Below are positions 2,883-32,263 of a DNA stretch of 64,000 nt, one piece after another. The position numbers were made by a program, and so were the translations under genes. The number at the start of each line of letters is the position of its first letter. The stretch's first letter is position 1. A model generated the notes under the pieces. That model saw only the letters and a list, made by a program, of their open reading frames with translations, was not told the origin of the DNA and did no database searches. This stretch comes from a virus (lineage: Duplodnaviria; Caudoviricetes). The DNA lies in IMG/VR virus record IMGVR_UViG_3300048502_000015, positions 32,001 to 96,000 of that record; one strand, written 5' to 3'.

Positions 2883-4400
2883 CTAATCTGAAGCTTTATT
2901 TGTTACTGGGTCTGCTTGGTCGCCTTTAGGCCAAGTCTTGGTCTTTGGTCCCTTTGATTCTCCACCTGGAGCAAAGCCGCCATCATCTAATCCGGTTCCA
3001 GAAGGCAACTCTTCCTTCTTGATATCGCCAATTTCCTTTAGCTCGTCATCATTCTTAGGAATGATCGGCTCAAGGATATCCTTGATGATTCCGTCTGACT
3101 TGATTGGATCAAGATTCTCTGGAGTCCACTTACGCTTGTCAATCTTTGGTTCTGGTCCGCCTAGACCAGTCGTTTCCGTTGCTACTCTGCTTTCTAGAGC
3201 ATCAAGGGCAGATGGTCCCCAATCAGAAACTTTTCCTTTGCCGTGGCAACGAGAACACTTAGGGTTGTCGCCTCCACACAATGGGCAAGTTACCTGCTTA
3301 GGAGAATCATCCTTATCGGATGCTGGGTTATACTCTTTTGGGGATGCCGTTCGGCTATCCGGGGTTTTAACCCCTGACTCCGCAATGGTCCGAACATCTT
3401 TAGGAGTCCAAGCTGCCGTTAATCCGCCACCGCCATAAAGCATTCCCTGAAGATCAGCTAGACTCTTCTGAATCTGTTGCGCATGAGGATGTCCGCCTCC
3501 GCTGGCCATAGCTGCCTGCTGAAGAGTCATAATCGCGTTTTGAACACCTTCTGGGTTCTGTACCGGGGTTGCAGGAGCGTTTGTAGGAACTCCACCCATA
3601 GCATTTGGATCGACCGCATTCGGATCTAGAGAAGCCGGATCTGTAGGACCATTTGCAAACTCAACTCCGTTATCTGCTGTACGCACACTAGCAGCCATCG
3701 CCATAGGCTCTCCTGCGCCCTCAGAGCCTCCAGAAAAGCCTTCTGAACCGGAATCAGAGGTTTCTGCGCCCGGACTTGGGAAATCAATTACGTTGTCTAC
3801 AGGAGCTTCGGTCTGATCGCTAATTTGTTCGGTGTTCTGATCTGGCACATCAAGAGTAATCGGCTCGTCAATAACCTGATTCTTCTTGTCTTCTCGTGCC
3901 TTAGCTCGGTCGTCCCAATAAGACTGGGTTACCATTTCCTTCTTGAAGTTACACTTGCCTTCAAAGCTTCCCTTACAATGCTGATCTGTCCAAGCATGAG
4001 AAGCCATAGCGTTAAAGCCTGCTGAAGGATCTCCTGAAGCCAACGAAATATCGGTAACCTCGGAATGATAAGGACACATCTTAACGCGAGCTTCATGAAT
4101 GCTTGCTGTACGAACATCTACATTTTGTCGCGCTTCATACGGACGATAATGATCTCGAAGAGTCTGAGCGATATTTGCTGGAGACTTGTGACCAACCTCG
4201 TCACAAGCAACAAGGACAACCCCATTGAAGTCATCTTCAACAAGGGCAAAACGAGCATCGAATTCCGCTGCCGTCTTTGCCTGCTTAAAGTAGTTTCCGT
4301 ACATAGCATCTGTACGAGCCTCAGCAACGACTAAAGCTTGGCGGGAAGCCAATCGGGGATTTTCATCTTCTGCGGCTAAAACTTCAAAAAGTCCGGTCAT
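2883..4400 (-). CDS. head-assembly/scaffold-like hypothetical protein with CxxC Zn motifs
   Basis: 505 aa; acidic, low complexity; CPLCGG..CSRCHGKG motif; position between terminase and portal. Confidence 0.45.
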   Translation of the reverse strand: MTGLFEVLAAEDENPRLASRQALVVAEARTDAMYGNYFKQAKTAAEFDARFALVEDDFNGVVLVACDEVGHKSPANIAQTLRDHYRPYEARQNVDVRTASIHEARVKMCPYHSEVTDISLASGDPSAGFNAMASHAWTDQHCKGSFEGKCNFKKEMVTQSYWDDRAKAREDKKNQVIDEPITLDVPDQNTEQISDQTEAPVDNVIDFPSPGAETSDSGSEGFSGGSEGAGEPMAMAASVRTADNGVEFANGPTDPASLDPNAVDPNAMGGVPTNAPATPVQNPEGVQNAIMTLQQAAMASGGGHPHAQQIQKSLADLQGMLYGGGGLTAAWTPKDVRTIAESGVKTPDSRTASPKEYNPASDKDDSPKQVTCPLCGGDNPKCSRCHGKGKVSDWGPSALDALESRVATETTGLGGPEPKIDKRKWTPENLDPIKSDGIIKDILEPIIPKNDDELKEIGDIKKEELPSGTGLDDGGFAPGGESKGPKTKTWPKGDQADPVTNKASD

Positions 4401-15531: not shown

Positions 15532-16947
15532 CTACAATGCCGCCCTCTCACGAATGTTGGCAAACGTCTGATGCCGAGTAATCTTTCCATTCTCGAAAAC
15601 AGTTTGTAGTACATCCGGGATTTGTACGTCATACATAGGAATAACGCCGTAACGTTCCGTAGCGTAGTTACCCGCCTGACTAAAGACAAGCTTCAAACGG
15701 CCTGCCTTACTTCTCTTCGAAGTATCGAGAGGAATCTTTGAGACATCATGCCAAATTCCATCTCGCTTCTGTGCGCTGCATTTGAACGCAAATCTTTGCG
15801 TATCACGGTTGACCTTCTGGAGCAAGCCCCCACCCATTCCGAAGACCATGTTTTCGGCTGAGTAGCCAGCAAGCTGGAGTCGTCCAAGGATCTTGTCGAT
15901 GCCGTTAGGATCGATCCCATCGCCCCACAAGACACGAATCTTGGGGTTAAGGACCTTGAATCCCTTAGAATTCGTAGTGGTTCCAAAACCCTTAGCCAGA
16001 GTATCTACAATCCATTCGGTTAGTAGATCTGGCGTAGGATGCTGAACGGTAATCGAATCAGGACGGACTACGAAAACCCCTTCGCGTTCAAGAATCTTAT
16101 CCTTGTACCAGGAGTTGAGATCAAGGCCAGCGACCGTATTGACAAAACGATAGATGTCATAGCTGTCGGCTACCACTGAAAGAATTCCAGTTGGGTATTT
16201 CTCAAGTAGGTCAGCCACGATCATCATTTCCTGCGCTTGTCCTCCTGCCGTCATAACCGAATGCTCAGTAGCAGGAACCGAAAATGCGAGACTTTGAGGG
16301 TCCGCATCGTAGGCTTGCATCGCCAACACCATTGCAGGGAGCGTATCTGTGCCCATGAAGTTGACTAGATGGGCTGCTCCACCGATGGCTGCTGTTTCGT
16401 CGCTTGAAGCTCCGCGATAACCAAAATCATGAAGCATGAACGGAAGACCGTCCCGGTTATCTGCTGTAGCGTCAAGATGGCCAGCAATCATTTCCTTTGT
16501 ATGGCGGCTGAGCGTAGCAACCGTTGATGGATACCAAACATGAGTCAAAAGGGACTCAACAAAGTTGGTAAGCCAAGCGCACTCTGGATCGGTATTTTCA
16601 ACCGTCATAAGCACGTTACCTGTCGGGATTACAGAACCCTCCGGAACCGCCTTGATGCGGATCGGAAGCTTGCCGTCAAGCTTGTTAACAATGTAATTCC
16701 ATCCATCAAAATTGAAGAGATTAGGATTACCAAAGTGAGTCTCGGCAATACCATAAGCCTCCCGGACATCATCCATCGTAACCGGCGTTTCAAGCTTCTC
16801 TAGGATCTTCTGCAATCCGAAAAACACCGTGTAAGGGAACTCTGCTCCCTGACGGCTTTCAAAATATGAGTAAACGCCCTCTGTCCCCTCGGGGTACATT
16901 TGATGGTGCGTCAACTTGTAGCTGTCTGTACTGAGAATTGTATTCAT
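15532..16947 (-). CDS. nadV: nicotinamide phosphoribosyltransferase (Nampt)
   Basis: TDSYK, LHDFGYRG, PATEHS, VVRPDS, NRDTQRFAFK motifs. Confidence 0.95.
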   Translation of the reverse strand: MNTILSTDSYKLTHHQMYPEGTEGVYSYFESRQGAEFPYTVFFGLQKILEKLETPVTMDDVREAYGIAETHFGNPNLFNFDGWNYIVNKLDGKLPIRIKAVPEGSVIPTGNVLMTVENTDPECAWLTNFVESLLTHVWYPSTVATLSRHTKEMIAGHLDATADNRDGLPFMLHDFGYRGASSDETAAIGGAAHLVNFMGTDTLPAMVLAMQAYDADPQSLAFSVPATEHSVMTAGGQAQEMMIVADLLEKYPTGILSVVADSYDIYRFVNTVAGLDLNSWYKDKILEREGVFVVRPDSITVQHPTPDLLTEWIVDTLAKGFGTTTNSKGFKVLNPKIRVLWGDGIDPNGIDKILGRLQLAGYSAENMVFGMGGGLLQKVNRDTQRFAFKCSAQKRDGIWHDVSKIPLDTSKRSKAGRLKLVFSQAGNYATERYGVIPMYDVQIPDVLQTVFENGKITRHQTFANIRERAAL

Positions 16948-16985: not shown

Positions 16986-17966
16986 CTACACTTGCTGCTT
17001 ATGTGCTCTGCGGGTCACAATGACGTTGATCAAATCCTGGTGATTCGGAACAACGTCCAAATCCCAGTCAAGATCAAACCACTTAACCTCGGCAATGTCA
17101 TCTCCTGGCTTAGGAGTCCCGAACATATGCTTGGCCTCGAAGAGCAGAGTCTTGATAACTCTATCTGGCTCTTTGCGATAGCGCCAATCATCGATTAGGT
17201 AGCTCCCGACATAGACCGGATCAGTAATCTCGATCCCGGCTTCCTCTGAAACCTCTCTGCGGGCATCTGCCTCGTAGCTAGGACTCTTAGGATCGGAGAA
17301 CCCTCCGATCAGTCGGAACTTCTTCTCATTGGCTTTGCGGCCTAGAAGGATCTTGCTTCCGTCCTCGTTGAGGATGGCAACATCGACTGTTGCAAAGCAT
17401 TGAGGAAACTGGCTGAATGCAGCCCAGACAACGCCTGCGCGGAAATCCGGAGTCCCTCGAACGCTTGTGCGAGAAACCTCTTTGCGGATTTCGCTTCCCG
17501 AAACAAAGACCTGAGATTCAAGCTCTTCGCTGGGATGCTTTCCCGAATAATGAGAGATGAATGAGTCGCGTCCTCCATAGAGAAGAACGGTCTGATTCGG
17601 GGTAATCACATCATCGATTTGAGTATCGAGATTGCGGCTCCAAACTTCATCGTCGGGCTGGTCCTTGATGTAAAGGACGTTCACATGAGGGAACTTGGCA
17701 AGGATCATCTGCTTGCGTCCCTCGAAGTCCAAAGGATTCTCTCGGGTGACCATCAAAGGCGACAAGCCAAGAAAGATGATTACTTTTCCATGGCGGTCAC
17801 AAACGGTCTGAATAAGTTCCATATGAGCATCATGTAGCTCGGGAACCTGAAAACGGCCTACGATTACACCGACATCCTGGCTGTTAGCTCTGGCGCGATC
17901 TCTAGATGCACCTTTGCTAAGCTTCAAGTTTCTTTCAAACTCTGTGTATTCTGCTGGATATGTCAT
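16986..17966 (-). CDS. natV: bifunctional NMN adenylyltransferase / Nudix hydrolase
   Basis: VGRFQVPELHDAH (HxxH), SGSEIR, Nudix box GG...ARREVSEEAG. Confidence 0.9.
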   Translation of the reverse strand: MTYPAEYTEFERNLKLSKGASRDRARANSQDVGVIVGRFQVPELHDAHMELIQTVCDRHGKVIIFLGLSPLMVTRENPLDFEGRKQMILAKFPHVNVLYIKDQPDDEVWSRNLDTQIDDVITPNQTVLLYGGRDSFISHYSGKHPSEELESQVFVSGSEIRKEVSRTSVRGTPDFRAGVVWAAFSQFPQCFATVDVAILNEDGSKILLGRKANEKKFRLIGGFSDPKSPSYEADARREVSEEAGIEITDPVYVGSYLIDDWRYRKEPDRVIKTLLFEAKHMFGTPKPGDDIAEVKWFDLDWDLDVVPNHQDLINVIVTRRAHKQQV

Positions 17967-18587: not shown

Positions 18588-19112
18588 ATGACTAAACCAA
18601 GAAAATACAATGATCCTGATCTAATTGCTGCTGTTAAATCATCAACTTCAATTGCACAAGTCTTGAATCAACTGGGACTTAAACCTGCGGGAGGTAACTA
18701 TACCACAATCAAGAATCGAACACAAGAACTTGGCTTAGATACCTCTCATTGGAGGGGTCAAGCTTGGAACAAGGGGTTAAAGGTTCCTGGTTATACCAAA
18801 CGTAATCTACAGGATATCCTAGTCGAAAATAGTCCACATAAGCAAAGTCACGGTTTGAAAATTCGCCTCATTAACGAGGGTTTACTCGAAGAAATTTGTG
18901 ATGAATGTTCAATTACTAACTGGATGAATCGGCCACTATCCTTTCATTTGGAACATATTAACGGTGTTCATAGCGATAACCGTCTTCCCAATCTACGGCT
19001 TCTATGTCCTAACTGTCATTCACAGACGCCTACCTATTGTGGCCGAAATATTGGCAAAGCCGAATCCCTCTGCCATTGGGTAGATGCCCTTGGTGCTAAA
19101 TTTCTCTCTTGA
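18588..19112 (+). CDS. HNH homing endonuclease
   Basis: CDEC...LEHINGVHSDNRLPNLRLLCPNCHSQT; antisense to tRNA operon. Confidence 0.9.
   Translation: MTKPRKYNDPDLIAAVKSSTSIAQVLNQLGLKPAGGNYTTIKNRTQELGLDTSHWRGQAWNKGLKVPGYTKRNLQDILVENSPHKQSHGLKIRLINEGLLEEICDECSITNWMNRPLSFHLEHINGVHSDNRLPNLRLLCPNCHSQTPTYCGRNIGKAESLCHWVDALGAKFLS
19057..19089 (-). pseudogene. 5' half of a short-arm-type tRNA-Leu truncated in the anticodon
   Basis: GGGCATCTACCCAATGGCAGAGGGATTCGGCTT; D loop resembles that of tRNA-Leu(TAG) at 26446. Confidence 0.65.
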
Positions 19113-21630: not shown

Positions 21631-21714
21631 CGGAATACCAGAGAATCGAACTCTGCCGGGACATAGCCCCTTATCTCGTTTCCAGCGAGACTCCTAACCA
21701 ATCGGTTATATTCC
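21631..21714 (-). tRNA. tRNA-Ser(GGA)
   Basis: TCTCG-CT-GGA-AA-CGAGA; long variable arm; overlaps pth2 stop. Confidence 0.8.
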
Positions 21715-22122
21715 AGAGTCCTCCGACAAGTGCCACCAGCGGCGTTCCTTGGTTTTTGGCGGCAAATCCTTGTACGTCCTGAAGTCTCCAAAAGTAGCCT
21801 GGACATGAAGATCGTCCTTATCCACAATCTCGACTCCGAGAGCAGTATAAGAAAACGGCTGAATCTCAGTTCGGCCTTCATCGATGATGATTGCCGTTTT
21901 GAATCCGCGTTCCTTAATGTACCGCTCAATGACCAGGAGTTGATCCGCATCCTCAGCCAGCATAACCAGCTTTGTGTAGTGCTTTCCGTAATTCCAGTTC
22001 TCGATCATCTTCCGATCAGAAATTTGGAATGCTTCGACGGCAGCATGAGCGACCTGCGCAGCAGATTTGCCAACCGACATACCTAAACCTCGGTTCAGGA
22101 ACAAATACATTGCAGGTCGCAC
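21706..22122 (-). CDS. pth2: peptidyl-tRNA hydrolase, Pth2 type
   Basis: MSVGKSAAQVAHAA, TKLV, IDEGRTEIQPFSYTALG. Confidence 0.9.
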   Translation of the reverse strand: MRPAMYLFLNRGLGMSVGKSAAQVAHAAVEAFQISDRKMIENWNYGKHYTKLVMLAEDADQLLVIERYIKERGFKTAIIIDEGRTEIQPFSYTALGVEIVDKDDLHVQATFGDFRTYKDLPPKTKERRWWHLSEDSGI

Positions 22123-22970: not shown

Positions 22971-23056
22971 CGGAATGCCTGGGATTTGAACCCAGAACGG
23001 GTATTAGACCGCACTTCCTTAGCAGGGAAGCTCCTCGTGCCATTCGGACACATTCC
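22971..23056 (-). tRNA. tRNA-Ser(GCT)
   Basis: CTTCC-CT-GCT-AA-GGAAG. Confidence 0.88.
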
Positions 23057-23117
23057 AAAGTAAATACTACTTCGGTTACGGGAATCCTCGCGGCCCACAC
23101 GATTTTGAAGGTAGTAA

Positions 23118-23189
23118 TGTCCCTGATGGGAGTCGAACCCATTCTCGCGGTTTAGGAAACCGCTGCCTTGTCCGTTTGGCTTCAAGGAC
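23118..23189 (-). tRNA. tRNA-Arg(CCT)
   Basis: GCGGT-TT-CCT-AA-ACCGC. Confidence 0.9.
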
Positions 23190-23283
23190 CGAGAGAAAGA
23201 GTCCCGTAGGACCCTTTCTGATTTGCTAGCACAATTAAAGTTCCCGCACCCGCCCGAGAGCTACAAACTCACTTGGGAACTAT

Positions 23284-23353
23284 TGATAAGTCCAGAATCG
23301 AACTGGAATCTCTGCCGTTTAGCAGCGAGGTTTCCAAAACCTCTTCATTATCT
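23284..23353 (-). ncRNA. tRNA-like RNA with long D stem and 4-nt 'anticodon' loop
   Basis: GAGGTTT-TGG-AAACCTC; CTGCT-AAAC-GGCAG; TCCAG-TTCGATT-CTGGA; GATAA/TTATC. Confidence 0.65.
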
Positions 23354-23384
23354 CCCCAGTACCCATGCATTGGCGTTGGAGTTA

Positions 23385-23783
23385 TGGATCATGTCGGAAT
23401 CGAACCGACGTGTTCGGTACGCCTATTAGGTTACTTCTATCAGCTTTGGGGCAGGCTTTAACCCGCCTCCACCAAAGAGTTTATACGATACTCATAAACG
23501 AAAAGCCCCGCTACCAATCTAGCTTTTATTCAGGTCTTTCTAGACGTGCTAGACAACGCTAGAAGACCGACTCTTGTTCTGGTTCCAAGTCAGAGTTGAC
23601 TCATGCAATGGCTAAACCAATGCTAGGAGTGAATCTCCCGCTGTTACCTGATCGCACTTGGCGAATAGGCTTGCCGGAATGTTCACGAGTGAATCGTTGT
23701 CATGTATTGACTGTTTGGTTTATGGTGACCAACCGCTGAATAACACTAACCGCTTCTTACCGAGTCGAATGCCTGTATGACCC
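23385..23783 (-). ncRNA. ssrA: tmRNA; predicted tag (A)DNDSLVNIPASLFAKCDQVTAGDSLLALV*
   Basis: GGGTCAT/ATGATCC-A with G3.U70; ATTCGAC; T arm GTCGG-TTCGATT-CCGAC; tag ORF 23701-23612. Confidence 0.9.
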
Positions 23784-23877
23784 GAGATTAGATGGACTAG
23801 GATTTCTGGGTTCAGTTCCCCACGTTACCTAGACTGGTGCGGTTGTTCCCGCTGTCTCTATTTGGACTACCCATCTA

Positions 23878-23949
23878 TATCCAGTACTGGATTCGAACCA
23901 GTGATCTCTTGCGTGTCGAGCAAGCGTAATCCCACTTTACCAACCGGAT
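23878..23949 (-). tRNA. tRNA-Val(GAC)
   Basis: CTTGC-TC-GAC-AC-GCAAG. Confidence 0.88.
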
Positions 23950-24004
23950 GAATTTCTCTGTCGCGGCGTTACCCACAGAGCCTCATCGCATCTGGATGAG
24001 AAAG

Positions 24005-24077
24005 TACTCGATATCCGTTCTGCCCGGATTACCTTTTGCGTGTAAAACAAACGCTCTCCTAATTGAGCTAATCGAGC
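24005..24077 (-). tRNA. tRNA-Val(TAC), atypical T loop
   Basis: TTTGT-TT-TAC-AC-GCAAA; T loop GGCAGAA. Confidence 0.8.
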
Positions 24078-24457
24078 AAGAATCCAAAGAGAGTCTGCGT
24101 TCACATCAAATAACTTTCAGAGCTACTGTCTTCCTGCCGGTCAAGTAGGTGGTTATTTGGCTGACTGTCACTCGGGACCTAGATCTTTGAGTCCTGTTTC
24201 TTTGGGTAAGAGTCCCCTTAAGGTATTACGTTGCCCCGCCTCTACCGGGGTCGCAAGGGGATAAGATTACGAGCGGTCACCAGCCATTGGAGGAATCGAA
24301 CCTCTCTACTCTAGGTGTACCATTATAAACAAGAATCGAACTTGACACCGTTAGGTTAAACTGTAGTCTAGATGCCTACACGGGTTCCCCGTTTACCGTA
24401 GTTGCTTGCGGTCTTAGCGCTAAGGAACCAAATTTGGTACATGGACCTACAGTTAAG

Positions 24458-24529
24458 CGACCCCATGGGGACTCGAACCCCAACTTCAACTTCGACAGAG
24501 TAGTGTGATGACCTTTTCACTATAGGGCC
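24458..24529 (-). tRNA. tRNA-Asp(GTC), intact
   Basis: CTACT-CT-GTC-GA-AGTTG; G73. Confidence 0.85.
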
Positions 24530-24581
24530 ATTAAATGAACCCCTACCGTCGCATAATGTATGAAACGATAAGGATGCAATA

Positions 24582-25253
24582 ATGAAATTACAACAACGAA
24601 CAGAAGCCCGTCATTTACGACAAGATTATGGTTGGTCTATTAAACAAATAGCCCAAAACCTCAATGTATCTCCCAGTTCAGTTAGTACCTGGACTAGAGA
24701 CATTGTTCTTACACCCGAACAACAGAAAAATTTGGATCTAAAAAATCCAGCATTGAATCCCACCGGAACAAACACAAATACCAAATTCTTTCGAGATAAA
24801 CGAAAGATATCACAAAACATCGGAGCCTCCCAAATCGGGAACCCCGAGTTTGCTGCTGGTTGTTGTCTGTATTGGGGAGAAGGATCTAAAAATCGTAATT
24901 CTGTTAGTATTACTAATACAGATACGAATCTTTTAGTCTTCTTTTTGCAATTTATACGAAATCACTTCGTCATTGACGATAATGAGATTCACGTAACCGT
25001 TTCCTATCATGTCGATAATGGATTCGATAAAGATACCGTCGAAGGATTTTGGTTACAAGCATTAAATCTACCCAAATCCTGTTTAAGAAAACCCATTCTA
25101 GATAGTCGATCTCGTTCGGCCACTAAAGCCCCAAATAAAAAGTATCCCTTTGGGTGTTGTCGAATTGAAATAGGTCGCACAGATATTATCCAAGCCATTT
25201 ATGGTGGTATTCAAGCACTTGGGGGATTTACAAAAACCGAATGGTTAGATTGA
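24582..25253 (+). CDS. HTH + LAGLIDADG-like homing endonuclease
   Basis: N-terminal HTH (SIKQIAQNLNVSPSSVSTW); LYWGEGSK...ITNTD; AT-rich; antisense to tRNA operon. Confidence 0.8.
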   Translation: MKLQQRTEARHLRQDYGWSIKQIAQNLNVSPSSVSTWTRDIVLTPEQQKNLDLKNPALNPTGTNTNTKFFRDKRKISQNIGASQIGNPEFAAGCCLYWGEGSKNRNSVSITNTDTNLLVFFLQFIRNHFVIDDNEIHVTVSYHVDNGFDKDTVEGFWLQALNLPKSCLRKPILDSRSRSATKAPNKKYPFGCCRIEIGRTDIIQAIYGGIQALGGFTKTEWLD

Positions 25254-25288
25254 CAGGGTAGCGCTTTAAGCCACTAAGCTACAACTCC
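25251..25288 (-). pseudogene. 5' half of tRNA-Asp(GTC) truncated after position 37
   Basis: GGAGTTGTAGCTTAGTGGCTTAAAGCGCTACCCTGTCA. Confidence 0.85.
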
Positions 25289-25359
25289 AGAAGCCACGAT
25301 GCCGACTGCATACGGCGGTTTGCGCAAACTCCCTCATGGCTTGAGGAGCGACCGTTAAG

Positions 25360-25430
25360 CAGGCCATATCCGAATCGAACAGATGTTAAGGGGTTTGGAA
25401 TCCCTTGTGCTACCACTACACCAATGGCCC
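25360..25430 (-). tRNA. tRNA-Trp(CCA)
   Basis: AGGGA-TT-CCA-AA-CCCCT. Confidence 0.88.
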
Positions 25431-25438
25431 TTATTTTA

Positions 25439-25624
25439 CTACCGAATTACAAAACGTCCCTGTCCAATGTGGCGGCGAGAACACTCCCTCTTCAAACCTC
25501 TAAGAAGTTTGTTCTTTTCGTCACTCATAGAGCCAAATCCGGATGAATAAAGCGCTGAAGTTAGAGAAAGAATTTCCTCGTCCGAGAAGACCGACCAACG
25601 AATCTTATTTGGAGTTTTGTTCAT
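25439..25624 (-). CDS. small hypothetical protein, leaderless
   Basis: TGATATACT-6nt-ATG. Confidence 0.6.
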   Translation of the reverse strand: MNKTPNKIRWSVFSDEEILSLTSALYSSGFGSMSDEKNKLLRGLKRECSRRHIGQGRFVIR

Positions 25625-25729
25625 AACTATAGTATATCACATAAATAGGCTCGCAAGGGGAATCAAAACCTATCGGAGCGCTCCCCAGCGCGGTTTAGAT
25701 AAGGATTTATATGATCGTTTGTCCGCCTA

Positions 25730-25800
25730 AGCCACAAGATGGTGCTGATCCATCGTCCCTGGGGTACGAATCCAGAATTCTTCCGTTGAACTATTGTGGC
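25730..25800 (-). tRNA. tRNA-Thr(CGT), atypical T loop
   Basis: CTGGA-TT-CGT-AC-CCCAG; T loop ATCAGCA. Confidence 0.78.
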
Positions 25801-25949
25801 GCTACTAATGAGATAGGAGTAAGCTACTCCATAGGTTCGGTTAATCCGTTGATCATGCCAATCTAATCAGCATAAGAGGCATCGATACTCTTCGTTAGCC
25901 AATGCTGTTAGCAACCCTTAGGATGGTCCCTTTCGGGAAAACTATCTCA

Positions 25950-26021
25950 AGCCGCCACCGAGAATCGAACTCGGGATGCATCCGTACCAAGGATGTGTGA
26001 TACCACTTACACCATGGCGGC
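25950..26021 (-). tRNA. tRNA-Thr(GGT)
   Basis: CATCC-TT-GGT-AC-GGATG. Confidence 0.92.
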
Positions 26022-26126
26022 GAATTGGGAATCCAATAAATTGGCAGTTAGCATCAAATGCTACTGGTTTATATTCCCAAGATCTCTACAAGAAACTGTT
26101 GCCCAGCTTCTTGCAAGTTTGAATTA

Positions 26127-26201
26127 TCGGGACGGCTGGATTCGAACCAGCGCTCACTCACTTCCAAGGCGAGGATGTTGACCAGGCTACACTACGCCCC
26201 G
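26127..26201 (-). tRNA. tRNA-Pro(TGG)
   Basis: CTCGC-CT-TGG-AA-GTGAG; C1-G72. Confidence 0.9.
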
Positions 26202-26247
26202 TTGGAGCAGAGAAGACCTTTGACAGCCTACTCTGCAAGTTACTTCA

Positions 26248-26322
26248 TGGACCTATTCGGGTTCGAACCGAAAACCTTCTCCGTGCAAGGGAGTTGCTCT
26301 ACCAAATTGGAGCTACAGGCCC
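26248..26322 (-). tRNA. tRNA-Ala(TGC)
   Basis: G3.U70; CTCC-CT-TGC-AC-GGAG. Confidence 0.92.
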
Positions 26323-26445
26323 AGACACCTGGGAAGATTGGTATCCCAGGCTTACTATCCAATGTATATTTAACGATTGGCCAATCACCGACCGACAGAG
26401 CAGGGCTAGACCCCTCTGTGATGCATGGCCTCTTCTAGCGAGGAG

Positions 26446-26519
26446 TGCCTCTCCTGGGACTCGAACCCAGACTGATACGCTTCTAAGGCGTAGTCCTCTA
26501 CCAATTGGGATAGAGAGGC
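26446..26519 (-). tRNA. tRNA-Leu(TAG), short variable loop
   Basis: TACGC-CT-TAG-AA-GCGTA; no long variable arm (a form known from actinobacterial tRNA-Leu). Confidence 0.88.
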
Positions 26520-26523
26520 TAGT

Positions 26524-26562
26524 GCCCTCTCCTACCAGAAAGGAGGAGGGTTAGGAGAGGGC
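26524..26562 (-). ncRNA. 11-bp hairpin displaying anti-Shine-Dalgarno CCTCCTTTCT in its loop
   Basis: GCCCTCTCCTA-ACCCTCCTCCTTTCTGG-TAGGAGAGGGC. Confidence 0.6.
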
Positions 26563-26711
26563 TGGGGGGACCAAGGGAATAAGCCCTTTACGCGGTCCCC
26601 GGTGCTACATTCTAGATACTGCAAATCACTCTAATAATCACATATTACAACTTGGAATCCGATCTAGGCCGGAACTTTTATGTTTCATGGATCCATAACC
26701 GCCGAAGCGGA

Positions 26712-26792
26712 TACCCACAAGAGGATTCGAACCTCTACGCCTTTCGGCACAACGTTCTTAGCGTTGCATGTCTACCATTCCATCATGTGGGC
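26712..26792 (-). tRNA. tRNA-Leu(AAG)
   Basis: CAACG-CT-AAG-AA-CGTTG; long variable arm. Confidence 0.88.
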
Positions 26793-26861
26793 GTACCCAT
26801 CGTGGCTCATGGGGCATCCGGACTACGATGGCTATCCGGTTTAGGCCAACCCTTACTAACT

Positions 26862-26932
26862 CTCGGGACGCCGGATTCGAACCGACTTCTCAGGGAACAA
26901 GATCCCTGCGCATTTCCTGTTGCTAATCCCTA
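26862..26932 (-). tRNA. atypical tRNA with 8-nt anticodon loop (undetermined/pseudo)
   Basis: CAGGG-ATCTTGTT-CCCTG; canonical T arm; A2xG71 mismatch. Confidence 0.55.
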
Positions 26933-27112
26933 CCTCAATCCAACCGTCGCCAGAAAGAGGATACTTGGTCCGTTGGGGTACATGGCCACGATCCCGTCAT
27001 CGTGGACGGGGCACCCATGAGATATGCCAACGGAAAGTGATCCAAACCATTTTCAGAAGAATTCAGGCTATACCTGTTCAATCTACGCGGATTGTCTTCT
27101 AGGTTCAGCTTG

Positions 27113-27950: not shown

Positions 27951-28058
27951 TCATCTATACCAACGATCAGTCCATGGTCCAACAGTAGCGCTCCATATGA
28001 AAATTCCAATCCAACATATGATAACACCGCTAAATGTGATAACAAGCACTTCAATCAT
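27951..28058 (-). CDS. 35-aa TM peptide
   Basis: MIEVLVITFSGVIICWIGIFIWSATVGPWTDRWYR*; ATGA-coupled to MTase; SD AAGGAGG. Confidence 0.5.
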   Translation of the reverse strand: MIEVLVITFSGVIICWIGIFIWSATVGPWTDRWYR

Positions 28059-28630
28059 TCAGTCCTCCTTGTAGACCTTGAGTACCCGTCCGGCAATAAA
28101 ACACCTTCAAGCGGAACGACTGCACCATGCGCGCGAAACGCCTCAGAGAACGCGTCCAGATCGCACCCGTAGTAGATGACAGCACAAGACATTGGGGCGC
28201 CTTTGTGGTCCGGTCTTCCTGCGATATAGAATTTGACCCGAGGTTCGTAGAGGAAGCAAACTGCGGCGGCTCGCGGATACACGAAGCGTTTCCAATGGCT
28301 GGTGTTGGTAGCGACTGGGACGAGCGCGATGACCTCTGATCCTGCGGCCGCTGCCTCTGCGATCCGCGCGAACCAGTCCAGGATCCGAGTGCCCCTCTGT
28401 TGGTCGGAACCGTACGGCGGGTTGACATAGATCCGTTGGTAGTCCCACGACTCAGCCAGGCCATCGTGCTCGGGGAGTTCGTAGCTGACGCGCGCGCCCA
28501 CCACCGAGTGAGCATTGGAGCACGGGTCGAGATCAATGTCGCCTCCGAACGTCCGTCGGACGGACGCGAGAAGCGCAGGTGGTGTGCACCAATCCTTCGT
28601 CTCAGTGACTGATTGTCGGCCTGCGGTCAT
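28055..28630 (-). CDS. phage Dam-like N6-adenine DNA methyltransferase
   Basis: DWCTPP, DLDPC, YVNPPY motifs. Confidence 0.85.
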   Translation of the reverse strand: MTAGRQSVTETKDWCTPPALLASVRRTFGGDIDLDPCSNAHSVVGARVSYELPEHDGLAESWDYQRIYVNPPYGSDQQRGTRILDWFARIAEAAAAGSEVIALVPVATNTSHWKRFVYPRAAAVCFLYEPRVKFYIAGRPDHKGAPMSCAVIYYGCDLDAFSEAFRAHGAVVPLEGVLLPDGYSRSTRRTE

Positions 28631-28661
28631 GCGCGTTCAGCCTTAGTCCGGTTCTCGTCGC

Positions 28662-28841
28662 TCATTCGCTAGACCCGACCATCCACGGATCATCGTCTGT
28701 GCCGATCACGTCGTTGCCATCGGTCGGCAATGAAGTCTCGAACGGTGGGACTAGCTCGTGCTCGTACGCTGCCTGGTCGCCGCTCCGCGTCGGCGGCGTA
28801 ATCGGCCCGTCCATTATCCAGTCAGCGAGCTTGTCAGGCAT
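28662..28841 (-). CDS. 59-aa acidic hypothetical protein
   Basis: MPDKLADWIMDG...SSE*; below ORF-track cutoff; coupled to upstream ORF. Confidence 0.4.
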   Translation of the reverse strand: MPDKLADWIMDGPITPPTRSGDQAAYEHELVPPFETSLPTDGNDVIGTDDDPWMVGSSE

Positions 28842-29247
28842 CTGGCTTTCCTTCCTGCCTCTCAGACCCCAAAGCGCTCAACGGCTGATAATCGGGGATT
28901 GAGCGCCAGACGCCGTGATCGAGCCAGCCATGCCAGCCAGCGGGCGAATCGAAGACCGAAGGCGTCACGGTGATCGAGCAGCCCCGAGTGTGACCTATCG
29001 CAGCCGCCCGTTCCCTCTCGTCAGCCGGGCTACTCCCGAGCGGGTCGCCAGCCGACACGGCGCCGTCATCGTGTTCGGTGACCGACCAACGATCATCTAG
29101 ACGTCCGAGCACGCCAGTCGGCAGACATACCCACCAGTAGAGATCGGTGGGGTCCGCGACGCCCTTACCGGCGCGACCATAGTCCCCTGGTTCGTAGTCG
29201 TTGGGCACCGTACCGATGGGGACGCGCCTGCCCTGTAGCTCAGTCAT
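28834..29247 (-). CDS. hypothetical protein (DUF6527-like C-terminus)
   Basis: WSVTEHDDG...ITVTPSV...WHGWLDHGVW; SD GAAAGGAG. Confidence 0.5.
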   Translation of the reverse strand: MTELQGRRVPIGTVPNDYEPGDYGRAGKGVADPTDLYWWVCLPTGVLGRLDDRWSVTEHDDGAVSAGDPLGSSPADERERAAAIGHTRGCSITVTPSVFDSPAGWHGWLDHGVWRSIPDYQPLSALGSERQEGKPDA

Positions 29248-29512
29248 CGTCGCTCCTTTCCAGAATCCGTAGCGCCTCGGCGCAGACGATCCACTCTGAC
29301 CGGCCCAGACGCTCACGTAACACGGCCTCCCGGCTCTCCTTTTCGAGTTCTTCTCTGATCTGCTGATAGAGGCCGGGAAGGGCAGCCGCGAGGATTAGTT
29401 TCGTGATGCGCTGATCGAGCAGAATTACCGGATTCGTCATTCCGATGTTCCGTCGCTCTCTCCCGAGTATCCTCGCTCCAATTTCTATCGCTTCTTTGCT
29501 TGGCTCGATCAT
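29240..29512 (-). CDS. hypothetical protein
   Basis: Translationally coupled small ORF. Confidence 0.5.
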   Translation of the reverse strand: MIEPSKEAIEIGARILGRERRNIGMTNPVILLDQRITKLILAAALPGLYQQIREELEKESREAVLRERLGRSEWIVCAEALRILERSDDD

Positions 29513-29712
29513 CCTACCATTTCTCCGTGTAGCGGGCAAATATAGGAGTACCCGGTCTTTAGGACCATCTGCTTACCGCAAGACGAATACTCGCCTTCCT
29601 TCTTTGCAGTATTAGCATGACATACTGCTGTTTCGTTTACTACATGGCTTCCAGAAAGAGGAGAAGTCTTTCTCCCCGATCCGGGATTATATCCTCTAGA
29701 TGTTTGCATCAT
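29509..29712 (-). CDS. small Zn-ribbon protein
   Basis: CH..CGKQM...ICPLHG. Confidence 0.5.
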   Translation of the reverse strand: MMQTSRGYNPGSGRKTSPLSGSHVVNETAVCHANTAKKEGEYSSCGKQMVLKTGYSYICPLHGEMVG

Positions 29713-30017
29713 AGCTTCACCAGATCCTCAAACGTAAAGCCCCGTCCGTAGACATGATGCCCGTCAAAGTAGTCCTCGATTCCGTCATCGAAGAGAATTG
29801 TAACTCGCGGAGGCCAGTATACAGAACGGCCTTCGTCGTCAACATCTCCATCCGGATCGCTAAGCTGGATGATAACTCCCGACGATTCCTCTACAGGAAT
29901 CTTGTTAGGACCAGCAAGCCTTACTCGATCACCCTTGTCGAATGATTCCCATTCGGCGTCGTGATATCCATAGGCATCTGGCGGACCTTCATATTCACCT
30001 TGTTCAAAATAATTCAT
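29709..30017 (-). CDS. acidic hypothetical protein, leaderless
   Basis: TGCTATACT-6nt-ATG. Confidence 0.6.
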   Translation of the reverse strand: MNYFEQGEYEGPPDAYGYHDAEWESFDKGDRVRLAGPNKIPVEESSGVIIQLSDPDGDVDDEGRSVYWPPRVTILFDDGIEDYFDGHHVYGRGFTFEDLVKL

Positions 30018-31927: not shown

Positions 31928-32263
31928 TTATCTTCCTTGTTAAAAATTTTCTGATGCTCGTGGGTATTACCCTCCAGAGTTAATCATCCATATAGGAGGC
32001 AACCTAGCTTGTTGGGTTGTCCTAAATTCATCATAGCAAACCATACCCAAAATACCGCCCTTGACAAAATATTCTCGTGTGATATATCGCGCGTGCGCGC
32101 GTATGATTATTCTTAAATAAGAAGAAACTACCTACAAATACACGAATAACTATACTAATGAATTAACTAAAATGTGTTACAAAATAGTGCCTAAATATTG
32201 GGCTAATATTTACGCTACGTGCGGGTATTATGGCAATCCAAAATGGTATGCTAAGATGTCAAT

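Follow-up and report, generated by a model that had tools for sequence, protein, structure and literature searches.

Results

A tRNA-Asp gene split in its anticodon loop

The DNA analysed here is a 64,000-nt stretch of a phage genome (Caudoviricetes), positions 32,001 to 96,000 of IMGVR_UViG_3300048502_000015, a 160,424-bp IMG/VR virus record rated complete; we refer to the whole stretch as the window. Its minus strand carries, between 11.7 and 27.7 kb, an array of 34 tRNA genes and one transfer-messenger RNA (tmRNA), as called by ARAGORN. Inside this array, a tRNA-Asp(GUC) gene is interrupted in its anticodon loop by an antisense open reading frame (ORF) for a putative homing endonuclease (the nuclease, below), and a second, intact tRNA-Asp(GUC) of another type stands close behind the insertion (Table 1).

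The 5' part of the broken gene comprises the acceptor strand GGAGTTG, the D arm, the anticodon-stem strand CTACC and the loop bases CTGTCA. It ends within the anticodon loop, where the reverse complement of the ORF takes over; the insertion point lies between positions 37 and 38 of the 7-nt loop, and besides the leader the ORF is the sole content of the insert. On the other side, 32 bases upstream of the ORF's ATG, stands ACGGTAG (24549-24543), that is (A37)C38 followed by the 3' anticodon-stem strand GGTAG, which can pair with CTACC. The next seven bases, GGGTTCA (24542-24536), are possibly the start of the T arm after a 7-nt deletion, as judged from the sequence, and nothing else of the T arm, nor any acceptor strand of the old gene, is left. 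The intact tRNA-Asp starts six bases past GGGTTCA, 52 nt from the start of the nuclease gene, and the two genes are divergently transcribed.

A preliminary description, made from the letters of this DNA alone, had pointed to four of these features, and all four are present: the clean 5' half, identical to the start of an intact gene in a related phage; the TGA stop of the ORF (25251-25253) supplied by the anticodon bases, as the complement of T35-C36-A37; the leftover 3' anticodon-stem strand, which fits the allele of the same relative; and, behind the insert, an intact tRNA-Asp(GTC) with a different acceptor, D arm and anticodon stem, recognized by both ARAGORN and Rfam. We thus confirm that the nuclease gene has split the resident tRNA-Asp in the anticodon loop and that the split gene is dead.

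Around the site, 6-6.7 kb of this DNA recur at 100% identity in four contigs that come from four further samples, and therefore the arrangement is real and not an assembly artefact. When all tRNAs were compared by BLAST with the masked genome, the 38-nt half was the sole strong tRNA fragment in the whole 160 kb, and general tRNA debris was dismissed as an explanation because no other notable fragment appeared. A whole-genome pass also established that the intact tRNA-Asp is the only one in the genome and that the ORF is present in a single copy. Scans for promoters and terminators gave results at chance level only, and blastn against GenBank phages returned only tRNA-sized matches to unrelated phages.

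Table 1. Features of the split tRNA-Asp locus, in window coordinates and minus-strand order
Feature	Position	Strand	Basis or remark
Proposed upstream homology arm: spacer and tRNA-Trp(CCA)	25289..25430	-	Syntenic in L002, L021 and L024
Dead 5' part of resident tRNA-Asp(GUC), bases 1-37	25251..25288	-	38/38 match to the start of the L002 tRNA-Asp
ORF, 223 aa, putative homing endonuclease: helix-turn-helix (HTH; ~1-45) and one LAGLIDADG-like domain (~84-217)	24582..25253	+	Antisense to the tRNA
701-nt loop insert: nuclease ORF and 5' leader	24550-25250		ORF antisense to the tRNA
5' leader of the nuclease gene, ribosome-binding site AAGGA at 24570-24574	24550..24581	+	Read from the sequence
14-nt relic of the old 3' half	24536..24549	-	Compared with the L002 allele, which reads ...GTCACGGTAGAGATCGGGGGTTCGAAT...
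Intact tRNA-Asp(GUC) of another type: acceptor GGCCCTA, D stem GTGA/TCAC, anticodon stem CTACT/AGTTG	24457..24529	-	ARAGORN; Rfam 56.9 bits
245-nt block with two T-arm-like motifs	24212..24456	-	Absent from L002; homology to L002 resumes only at 24211-24158
Proposed downstream homology arm	24158..24211	-	87% identical to L002:6701-6648, ~47 nt beyond the 3' end of the L002 tRNA-Asp

The uninterrupted allele in related phages

Among viral contigs, an exact match to the 38-nt half occurs in one other phage contig, L002, in which these 38 nt run on into a normal 75-nt tRNA-Asp(GTC) (L002:6748-6822, reading ...CTGTCACGGTAGAGATCGGGGGTTCGAAT...). The two arrays are collinear at 66-97% identity (blastn) and share the gene order tRNA-Thr, Thr, Trp, Asp, then Val, Val, tmRNA and Arg. 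Homology with L002 covers the spacer and the half gene (25352-25251, 87% over 102 nt), stops exactly at 25251 and resumes at 24211-24158; therefore 1,039 nt of the window (24212-25250) replace 83 nt of L002 (6702-6784), which hold the 3' half of the tRNA and a short spacer. The array of L002 contains no homologue of the nuclease. L002 belongs to the closest relative (G001), and across its whole array, covered by contigs L002, L019 and L034, there is no second tRNA-Asp; the second type was looked for in the relatives' DNA with ARAGORN, the BLAST query being too short to be informative. The uninterrupted GGAGTTG-type gene that the preliminary description had predicted, free of both nuclease and substitute, thus exists in the closest relative. 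More distant relatives (L021 and L024), found via the PTH2 gene of the array, likewise carry an intact tRNA-Asp after tRNA-Trp and no nuclease. Between close relatives, the nuclease gene is accordingly present or absent at one site with homologous flanks, as is characteristic of free-standing homing genes.

The intact gene represents a second tRNA-Asp type

In its 17-nt anticodon arm, the intact gene (CTACT CTGTCGA AGTTG) differs by five changes from the broken one (CTACC CTGTCAC GGTAG). It is 77% identical to, and shares the D arm of, a second tRNA-Asp of L021, which lies at the far end of the array between tRNA-Gly(UCC) and tRNA-Met with no nuclease beside it. Neither the window nor L002 has a tRNA-Asp at that far position, the flanks of the second-type copies in the window and in L021 are unrelated, and an exact search for the intact gene of the window in viral contigs gave no match. 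The gene is not a recoded replacement of the old one, as had been suggested, but a member of a second tRNA-Asp type. The preliminary description had also named relatives that carry both tRNA-Asp copies and no nuclease as evidence against a homing cassette; L021 is such a relative, whereas the closest one, L002/G001, is not. Two readings of the origin of the substitute follow: acquisition from a different phage of the group, or relocation of a gene long resident in the lineage. Because its anticodon stem differs, with changes at 5 of the 17 arm positions, the substitute is probably not cut by the nuclease.

Two T-arm-like motifs, GTTCGATTC and GGTTCGATTCC, each beside a short stem, occur in the 245-nt block downstream of the intact gene, where no tRNA can be called; they may be relics of the 3' halves of earlier tRNAs.

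A LAGLIDADG-like protein with a predicted dimer interface

The ORF is full length for its family and keeps every invariant residue. Its homologues are 218-230 residues long and share 36-45% identity with it; the best conserved block is AGC(M/C)LYWGEGSK, with L96, Y97, W98, E100, G101, K103 and N112 invariant among 11 members. Sequence searches recognize little beyond the N terminus: Pfam gives the N-terminal HTH only (HTH_23, E 1.4e-5), the profile search of PDB sequences HTH matches only, PHROGs weak HTH families and no recombinase domain, and the Atlas unnamed look-alike clusters only. In the AlphaFold2 model (pLDDT 88), the conserved block lies at the end of a helix spanning residues 88-100. 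A motif helix ending in an acidic residue followed by glycine, the mark of LAGLIDADG enzymes, is thus present, with a spacing unlike that of the canonical nine-residue motif.

When residues 84-217 were compared with 48,161 chains, the best fold matches were LAGLIDADG enzymes (eleven entries, Z 6.6 to 4.5, below the Z of 8 under which the aligner rates matches as common). They include the TliVMA intein nuclease (Z 6.6; root-mean-square deviation 3.3, 82 residues aligned), I-DmoI (Z 6.2; 2.7, 81), E-DreI (Z 5.5), I-Vdi141I (4.9), I-Tsp061I (4.8) and I-CreI (4.8); WhiA was matched as well (5.8 and 5.1). Single-motif LAGLIDADG enzymes dimerize via their motif helices, and enzymes of this kind make site-specific, Mg-dependent double-strand cuts with 4-nt 3' overhangs. 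A homodimer was predicted with a score of 0.81, compared with 0.00 for the best of 3 controls, where 20 of 30 proteins with solved homodimeric structures and 1 of 23 with solved single-chain structures attain the mark for a homodimer, and where the pass may reflect likeness to known structures because dimers of the I-CreI type have been solved. The runs agreed in at least 97% of contacts, with a partner pLDDT of at least 83, and the predicted interface comprises the helix 85-100, in the manner of I-CreI-type dimers, and residues 112-123 and 213-218. The modelling thus suggests that the protein probably acts as a homodimer through its single LAGLIDADG-like domain. The earlier label "LAGLIDADG-like" holds for the motif, the weak-to-moderate fold matches and the predicted dimer, but no family model covers the nuclease domain. 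Because the fold evidence is moderate and no LAGLIDADG sequence model matches, we call the protein LAGLIDADG-like and do not file it as a member.

A large family docked at tRNA genes

The ORF belongs to a large unnamed family whose nuclease domain has no name. With the alignment as query, we retrieved 13 loci from viruses, 80 of the metagenomic ones (at least 516 in all) and 18 from metagenome-assembled genomes (MAGs) of Chloroflexota and Actinomycetota. Flanks of 130 nt or more on each side were available at 97 loci, and at 92 of these a tRNA gene stands no more than 100 nt from the nuclease gene (viral 12/14, metagenomic 65/66, bacterial MAGs 15/17). The commonest partners are tRNA-Gly(UCC), 20-40 nt upstream (one clade, with 99% support, of 64 nucleases), tRNA-Val(UAC), some 14 nt downstream in Chloroflexota, and tRNA-Glu(UUC). 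Phage copies form long branches and lie beside genes for Asp, Thr, Gly, Cys, Ile, Leu, Glu or Val tRNAs. The type of the docked tRNA is clustered on the nuclease tree (35 changes, compared with a shuffled mean of 51.6; none of 200 shuffles reaches 35), in a quick tree in which the placement of the long phage branches, that of the window included, is unsure.

Three family loci contain further unusual tRNA sequences. In L012 (3171-3372), the family nuclease is followed by a tRNA of 85 nt whose variable arm is long and whose anticodon is GCA (Cys), then by an orphan T-arm/acceptor fragment (~3262-3295) and a normal tRNA-Cys(GCA). L015 (3170-3250) has a tRNA-Cys-like sequence (AGTATTG/CAATACT, anticodon GCA) directly after the nuclease stop, with no ARAGORN call. 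In L011 (2050-3627), the nuclease lies amid two tRNA-Gly(UCC) genes and one tRNA-Gly(GCC), and one of the UCC copies is 83 nt long, with an insertion in the variable region.

Split tRNA genes that enclose a nuclease and an intact tRNA

To find split tRNAs, we required a 5' and a 3' half 150-1600 nt apart with pairing acceptor (7 bp) and anticodon stems (5 bp), a D stem and a T arm. Four complete split tRNAs were found to enclose a family nuclease, each with a nested intact tRNA for the same amino acid; elsewhere in 573 kb the search gave five matches at four places, at least some of which borrow the T arm and acceptor of an intact tRNA. In L009, the 5' half of a tRNA-Thr(CGT) is followed after 2 nt by an intact tRNA-Thr(CGT), the nuclease, its TAA and the 3' half from position 33. 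In L008, the halves of a tRNA-Gly(CCC) surround an intact tRNA-Gly(CCC) and the nuclease; in L010, the halves of a tRNA-Gly(GCC) surround a tRNA-Gly(UCC) and the nuclease, whose stop codon abuts the anticodon; and in L100, the halves of a tRNA-Gly(UCC) surround another tRNA-Gly(UCC), the nuclease and a small ORF.

All five breakpoints, with that of the window, fall within the 7-nt anticodon loop, and in four of the five breaks the stop codon of the nuclease lies 0-5 nt from the junction. In every case, the anticodon stem of the intact tRNA is unlike that of the broken gene. The nested modules provide the best evidence that a tRNA and a nuclease can be mobilized jointly. The "cut-and-replace" layout proposed earlier is thus found in nested form in these four contigs, but in the window the substitute lies outside the loop insertion.

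Other features of the array

At 24005-24077 (-), where the relatives have tRNA-Val(UAC), Rfam reports a tRNA (44.4 bits) without a counterpart among the ARAGORN calls. The ARAGORN tmRNA (23385-23783, -; tag AGDSLLALV) is also called at the syntenic position in L002 and L021, and no Rfam tmRNA family matches there at E <= 1. The array contains a second antisense endonuclease gene (18588-19112, +), which encodes a 174-aa HNH protein (phrog_10822, E 2.4e-51) and begins 5 nt from the 5' end of tRNA-Leu(UAA); because this region is kept in L002 at 75%, the HNH gene is common to both phages, unlike the LAGLIDADG-like gene. Two large ORFs of 471 aa (15532-16947, -) and 326 aa (16986-17966, -) also lie in the array, which we take, by eye and without a family search, to encode NAD-salvage enzymes, and a PTH2 peptidyl-tRNA hydrolase gene is found at 21706-22122. 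Just beyond the end of the array, a GC-rich island (28001-30000; 57% compared with ~46% elsewhere) holds an ORF whose identical copy in the sister contigs has a Dam methylase domain (PF05869).

Discussion

The explanation that we favour, with a probability of about 65%, is that a free-standing homing endonuclease of an undescribed family, docked at tRNA genes, split the resident tRNA-Asp, and that the neighbouring tRNA-Asp of the other type now decodes the Asp codons. That a homing endonuclease docked at tRNA genes is accompanied here by a substitute tRNA is well supported, because the anatomy of the locus, the nuclease-free allele of L002, the docking at 92 of 97 loci and the four nested modules all point to it. 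The gene also lies outside any intron or intein, since no ribozyme is found at E <= 1 and the antisense ORF fills the insert.

We infer the activity of the nuclease, its target, the resistance of the substitute and homing itself from these arrangements. The five anticodon-loop breakpoints suggest that the nuclease would cut the near-palindromic anticodon-arm DNA of its cognate tRNA gene. Insertion would destroy the tRNA-Asp gene and presumably the nuclease's own target with it, and the old 3' half would since have been mostly deleted. The allele bearing the nuclease would be immune because its arm is split, and the neighbouring tRNA would be immune because its stem differs. During co-infection with a nuclease-free relative such as L002, the cut intact allele could be repaired from the nuclease-bearing allele, with the 5' half and tRNA-Trp as one repair arm and the DNA that starts at 24211 and runs downward as the other, once the recipient 3' half has been resected. 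The whole 1,039-nt block (nuclease, relic, substitute tRNA and 245 nt) would then be copied into the recipient, and the outcome would be intronless homing with co-conversion. The inverted orientation of the nuclease relative to the tRNA in the window would be possible for a homodimer acting on a near-palindromic arm.

Several observations weigh against this explanation or do not fit it. The 245-nt block has no similarity to the DNA of the relatives. No LAGLIDADG Pfam model matches any of the 11 family members at E <= 5, HTH models being the only ones to do so, the fold scores (Z 5-6.6) lie within the range rated common, and Foldseek found nothing in PDB and BFVD at E <= 0.001, with a few LAGLIDADG-named phage proteins among the weak rows. 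A single-protein search of viral contigs gave no close relatives of the nuclease; as none above 45% identity was found outside this phage strain, recent mobility of this copy is undocumented. Direct repeats of loop sequence (5-6 nt) flank the cassettes in L009, L100 and L008, longer than the expected 4-nt overhang. Most bacterial loci dock at an intact tRNA with no tRNA fragments detected, and splitting is therefore the exception; the usual target could lie elsewhere in the tRNA gene or beside it. Finally, the substitute in the window is not nested with the nuclease in the split but sits behind the 14-nt 3' relic, and because L021 has both types without a nuclease, it may be an old resident of the lineage and not cargo. 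These last points would fit a nuclease that is mobile but does not carry the second tRNA-Asp: the lineage had both types, the home of the nuclease is the second type, and the broken first type records a one-off ectopic hit or a local rearrangement, its loss tolerated because the gene was redundant. The 77% identity to the second copy of L021, similar to the ~71% between the first-type genes of the two phages, agrees with such a history, as does the recurrence of divergent tRNA(-)/nuclease(+) docking at 45-87 nt in L007, L018, L091, L096 and L107. However, no second-type tRNA-Asp occurs in the array of G001 or, in the window, at the place between Gly(UCC) and Met where L021 has it, and the two second-type copies have dissimilar flanks; the position of the only working tRNA-Asp beside the nuclease would then be a coincidence, even though four other contigs show nested modules. 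We regard a substitute that is not cargo as unlikely, though as the likeliest of the alternatives.

Much less probable is that the protein is no nuclease but a domesticated DNA-binding factor which, like WhiA, combines an HTH with a degenerate LAGLIDADG domain, and which binds tRNA genes or regulates them; the split tRNA would then be a remnant of an old event. WhiA is indeed among the fold matches (Z 5.8 and 5.1), Pfam gives HTH models only, and docking at tRNA-Gly(UCC) and tRNA-Val(UAC) is stable in the MAGs of Actinomycetota and Chloroflexota; but the acidic E100 of the motif and the G-S after it are invariant, of two closely related phages only one has the gene at this site, five independent tRNA breaks fall exactly in the anticodon loop, and the partner tRNAs in phages are diverse. 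That the insert is an intron (group I or protein-spliced) from which the GGAGTTG-type tRNA-Asp is still made is scarcely credible. The junction 37/38 is the classical position of tRNA introns, and group I introns with nucleases are known in the anticodon loops of bacterial tRNAs (PMC3984707); this reading is contradicted by the loss of the old 3' half, as both the T arm and the 3' acceptor strand are gone, the insert is filled by the antisense ORF, and no Rfam intron family matches at E <= 1 (a scan of 23000-27000 at this threshold gave tRNAs only). An insertion sequence or a tRNA-targeting integrative element was likewise rejected, since the only ORF has no recombinase domain and there are no terminal repeats; the nested modules end at the tRNA 5' end and at the nuclease stop codon, which leaves no room for such repeats.

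The favoured explanation, a docked homing endonuclease with a neighbouring substitute, can be extended to a broader idea that we put forward tentatively and hold at less than even odds. Modules of tRNA and nuclease may be "cut-and-rescue" drives, in which a homodimer uses the palindromic anticodon arm as its target, inactivates the resident tRNA gene and is propagated along with a divergent tRNA that carries the same amino acid but escapes cutting; over many rounds, such replacement, beside selection on codon usage, could shape the tRNA alleles of phage arrays, and the same family could hold the tRNA-Gly(UCC) and tRNA-Val(UAC) loci of soil Actinomycetota and Chloroflexota. To our knowledge, homing endonucleases are thought to enter essential genes only inside a self-splicing intron or an intein, and otherwise to sit between genes. 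In the window, a nuclease gene lies inside an RNA gene without a splicing element, and function rests on an adjacent second gene; this amounts to a third route by which selfish elements can enter essential genes and parallels in nature the engineered cleave-and-rescue drives. As the family is large (at least 516 metagenome matches), it could be responsible for some of the turnover, duplication and fragment debris in phage tRNA arrays, and it may provide a set of compact enzymes whose targets, the anticodon arms, can be read from the broken genes.

Among known systems, the full-text literature yielded SegB, mobE, collaborative homing and reviews of group I introns, and no nuclease cassette that splits a tRNA and brings a substitute, in a search for which most subscription journals lay outside the coverage, so that this absence is no proof. 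T4 SegB is a free-standing GIY-YIG homing endonuclease of the T4 tRNA cluster that recognizes the T-psi-C arm and is absent from T2L, and its intronless homing with co-conversion has been shown experimentally (PMC2330249). The window resembles this system in having a free-standing nuclease gene in a phage tRNA array, apparent recognition of a conserved tRNA-gene element and relatives without the gene, and SegB homing takes flanking tRNA genes along and replaces recipient markers (PMC2330249), as is proposed here for the block. In contrast, SegB is a GIY-YIG enzyme that cuts at the 3' ends of tRNAs, and its gene lies between tRNA genes without splitting any of them, whereas the window combines a LAGLIDADG-like fold, anticodon-loop breakpoints, a destroyed tRNA gene and a tRNA for the same amino acid alongside. 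With enzymes of the I-CreI type, the protein shares one motif helix ending in an acidic residue and glycine, a predicted dimer via that helix and a presumed near-palindromic target; it differs in lacking membership by sequence model, in its moderate fold scores and in its added N-terminal HTH, free-standing gene and tRNA-gene target. Intron elements in tRNA anticodon loops also have a nuclease aimed at the anticodon region and occupy the loop, but their ribozyme splices out and restores the tRNA, whereas in the window there is no ribozyme, the gene is dead and a separate tRNA gene serves. Finally, in collaborative (trans) and intronless homing, as proposed here, the donor is immune by means other than an intron of the nuclease gene itself, and DNA at its flanks is co-converted (PMC3984707, PMC2790892); in the window, however, immunity would be provided by a divergent substitute gene and disruption of the target, and not by an ORF-less intron.

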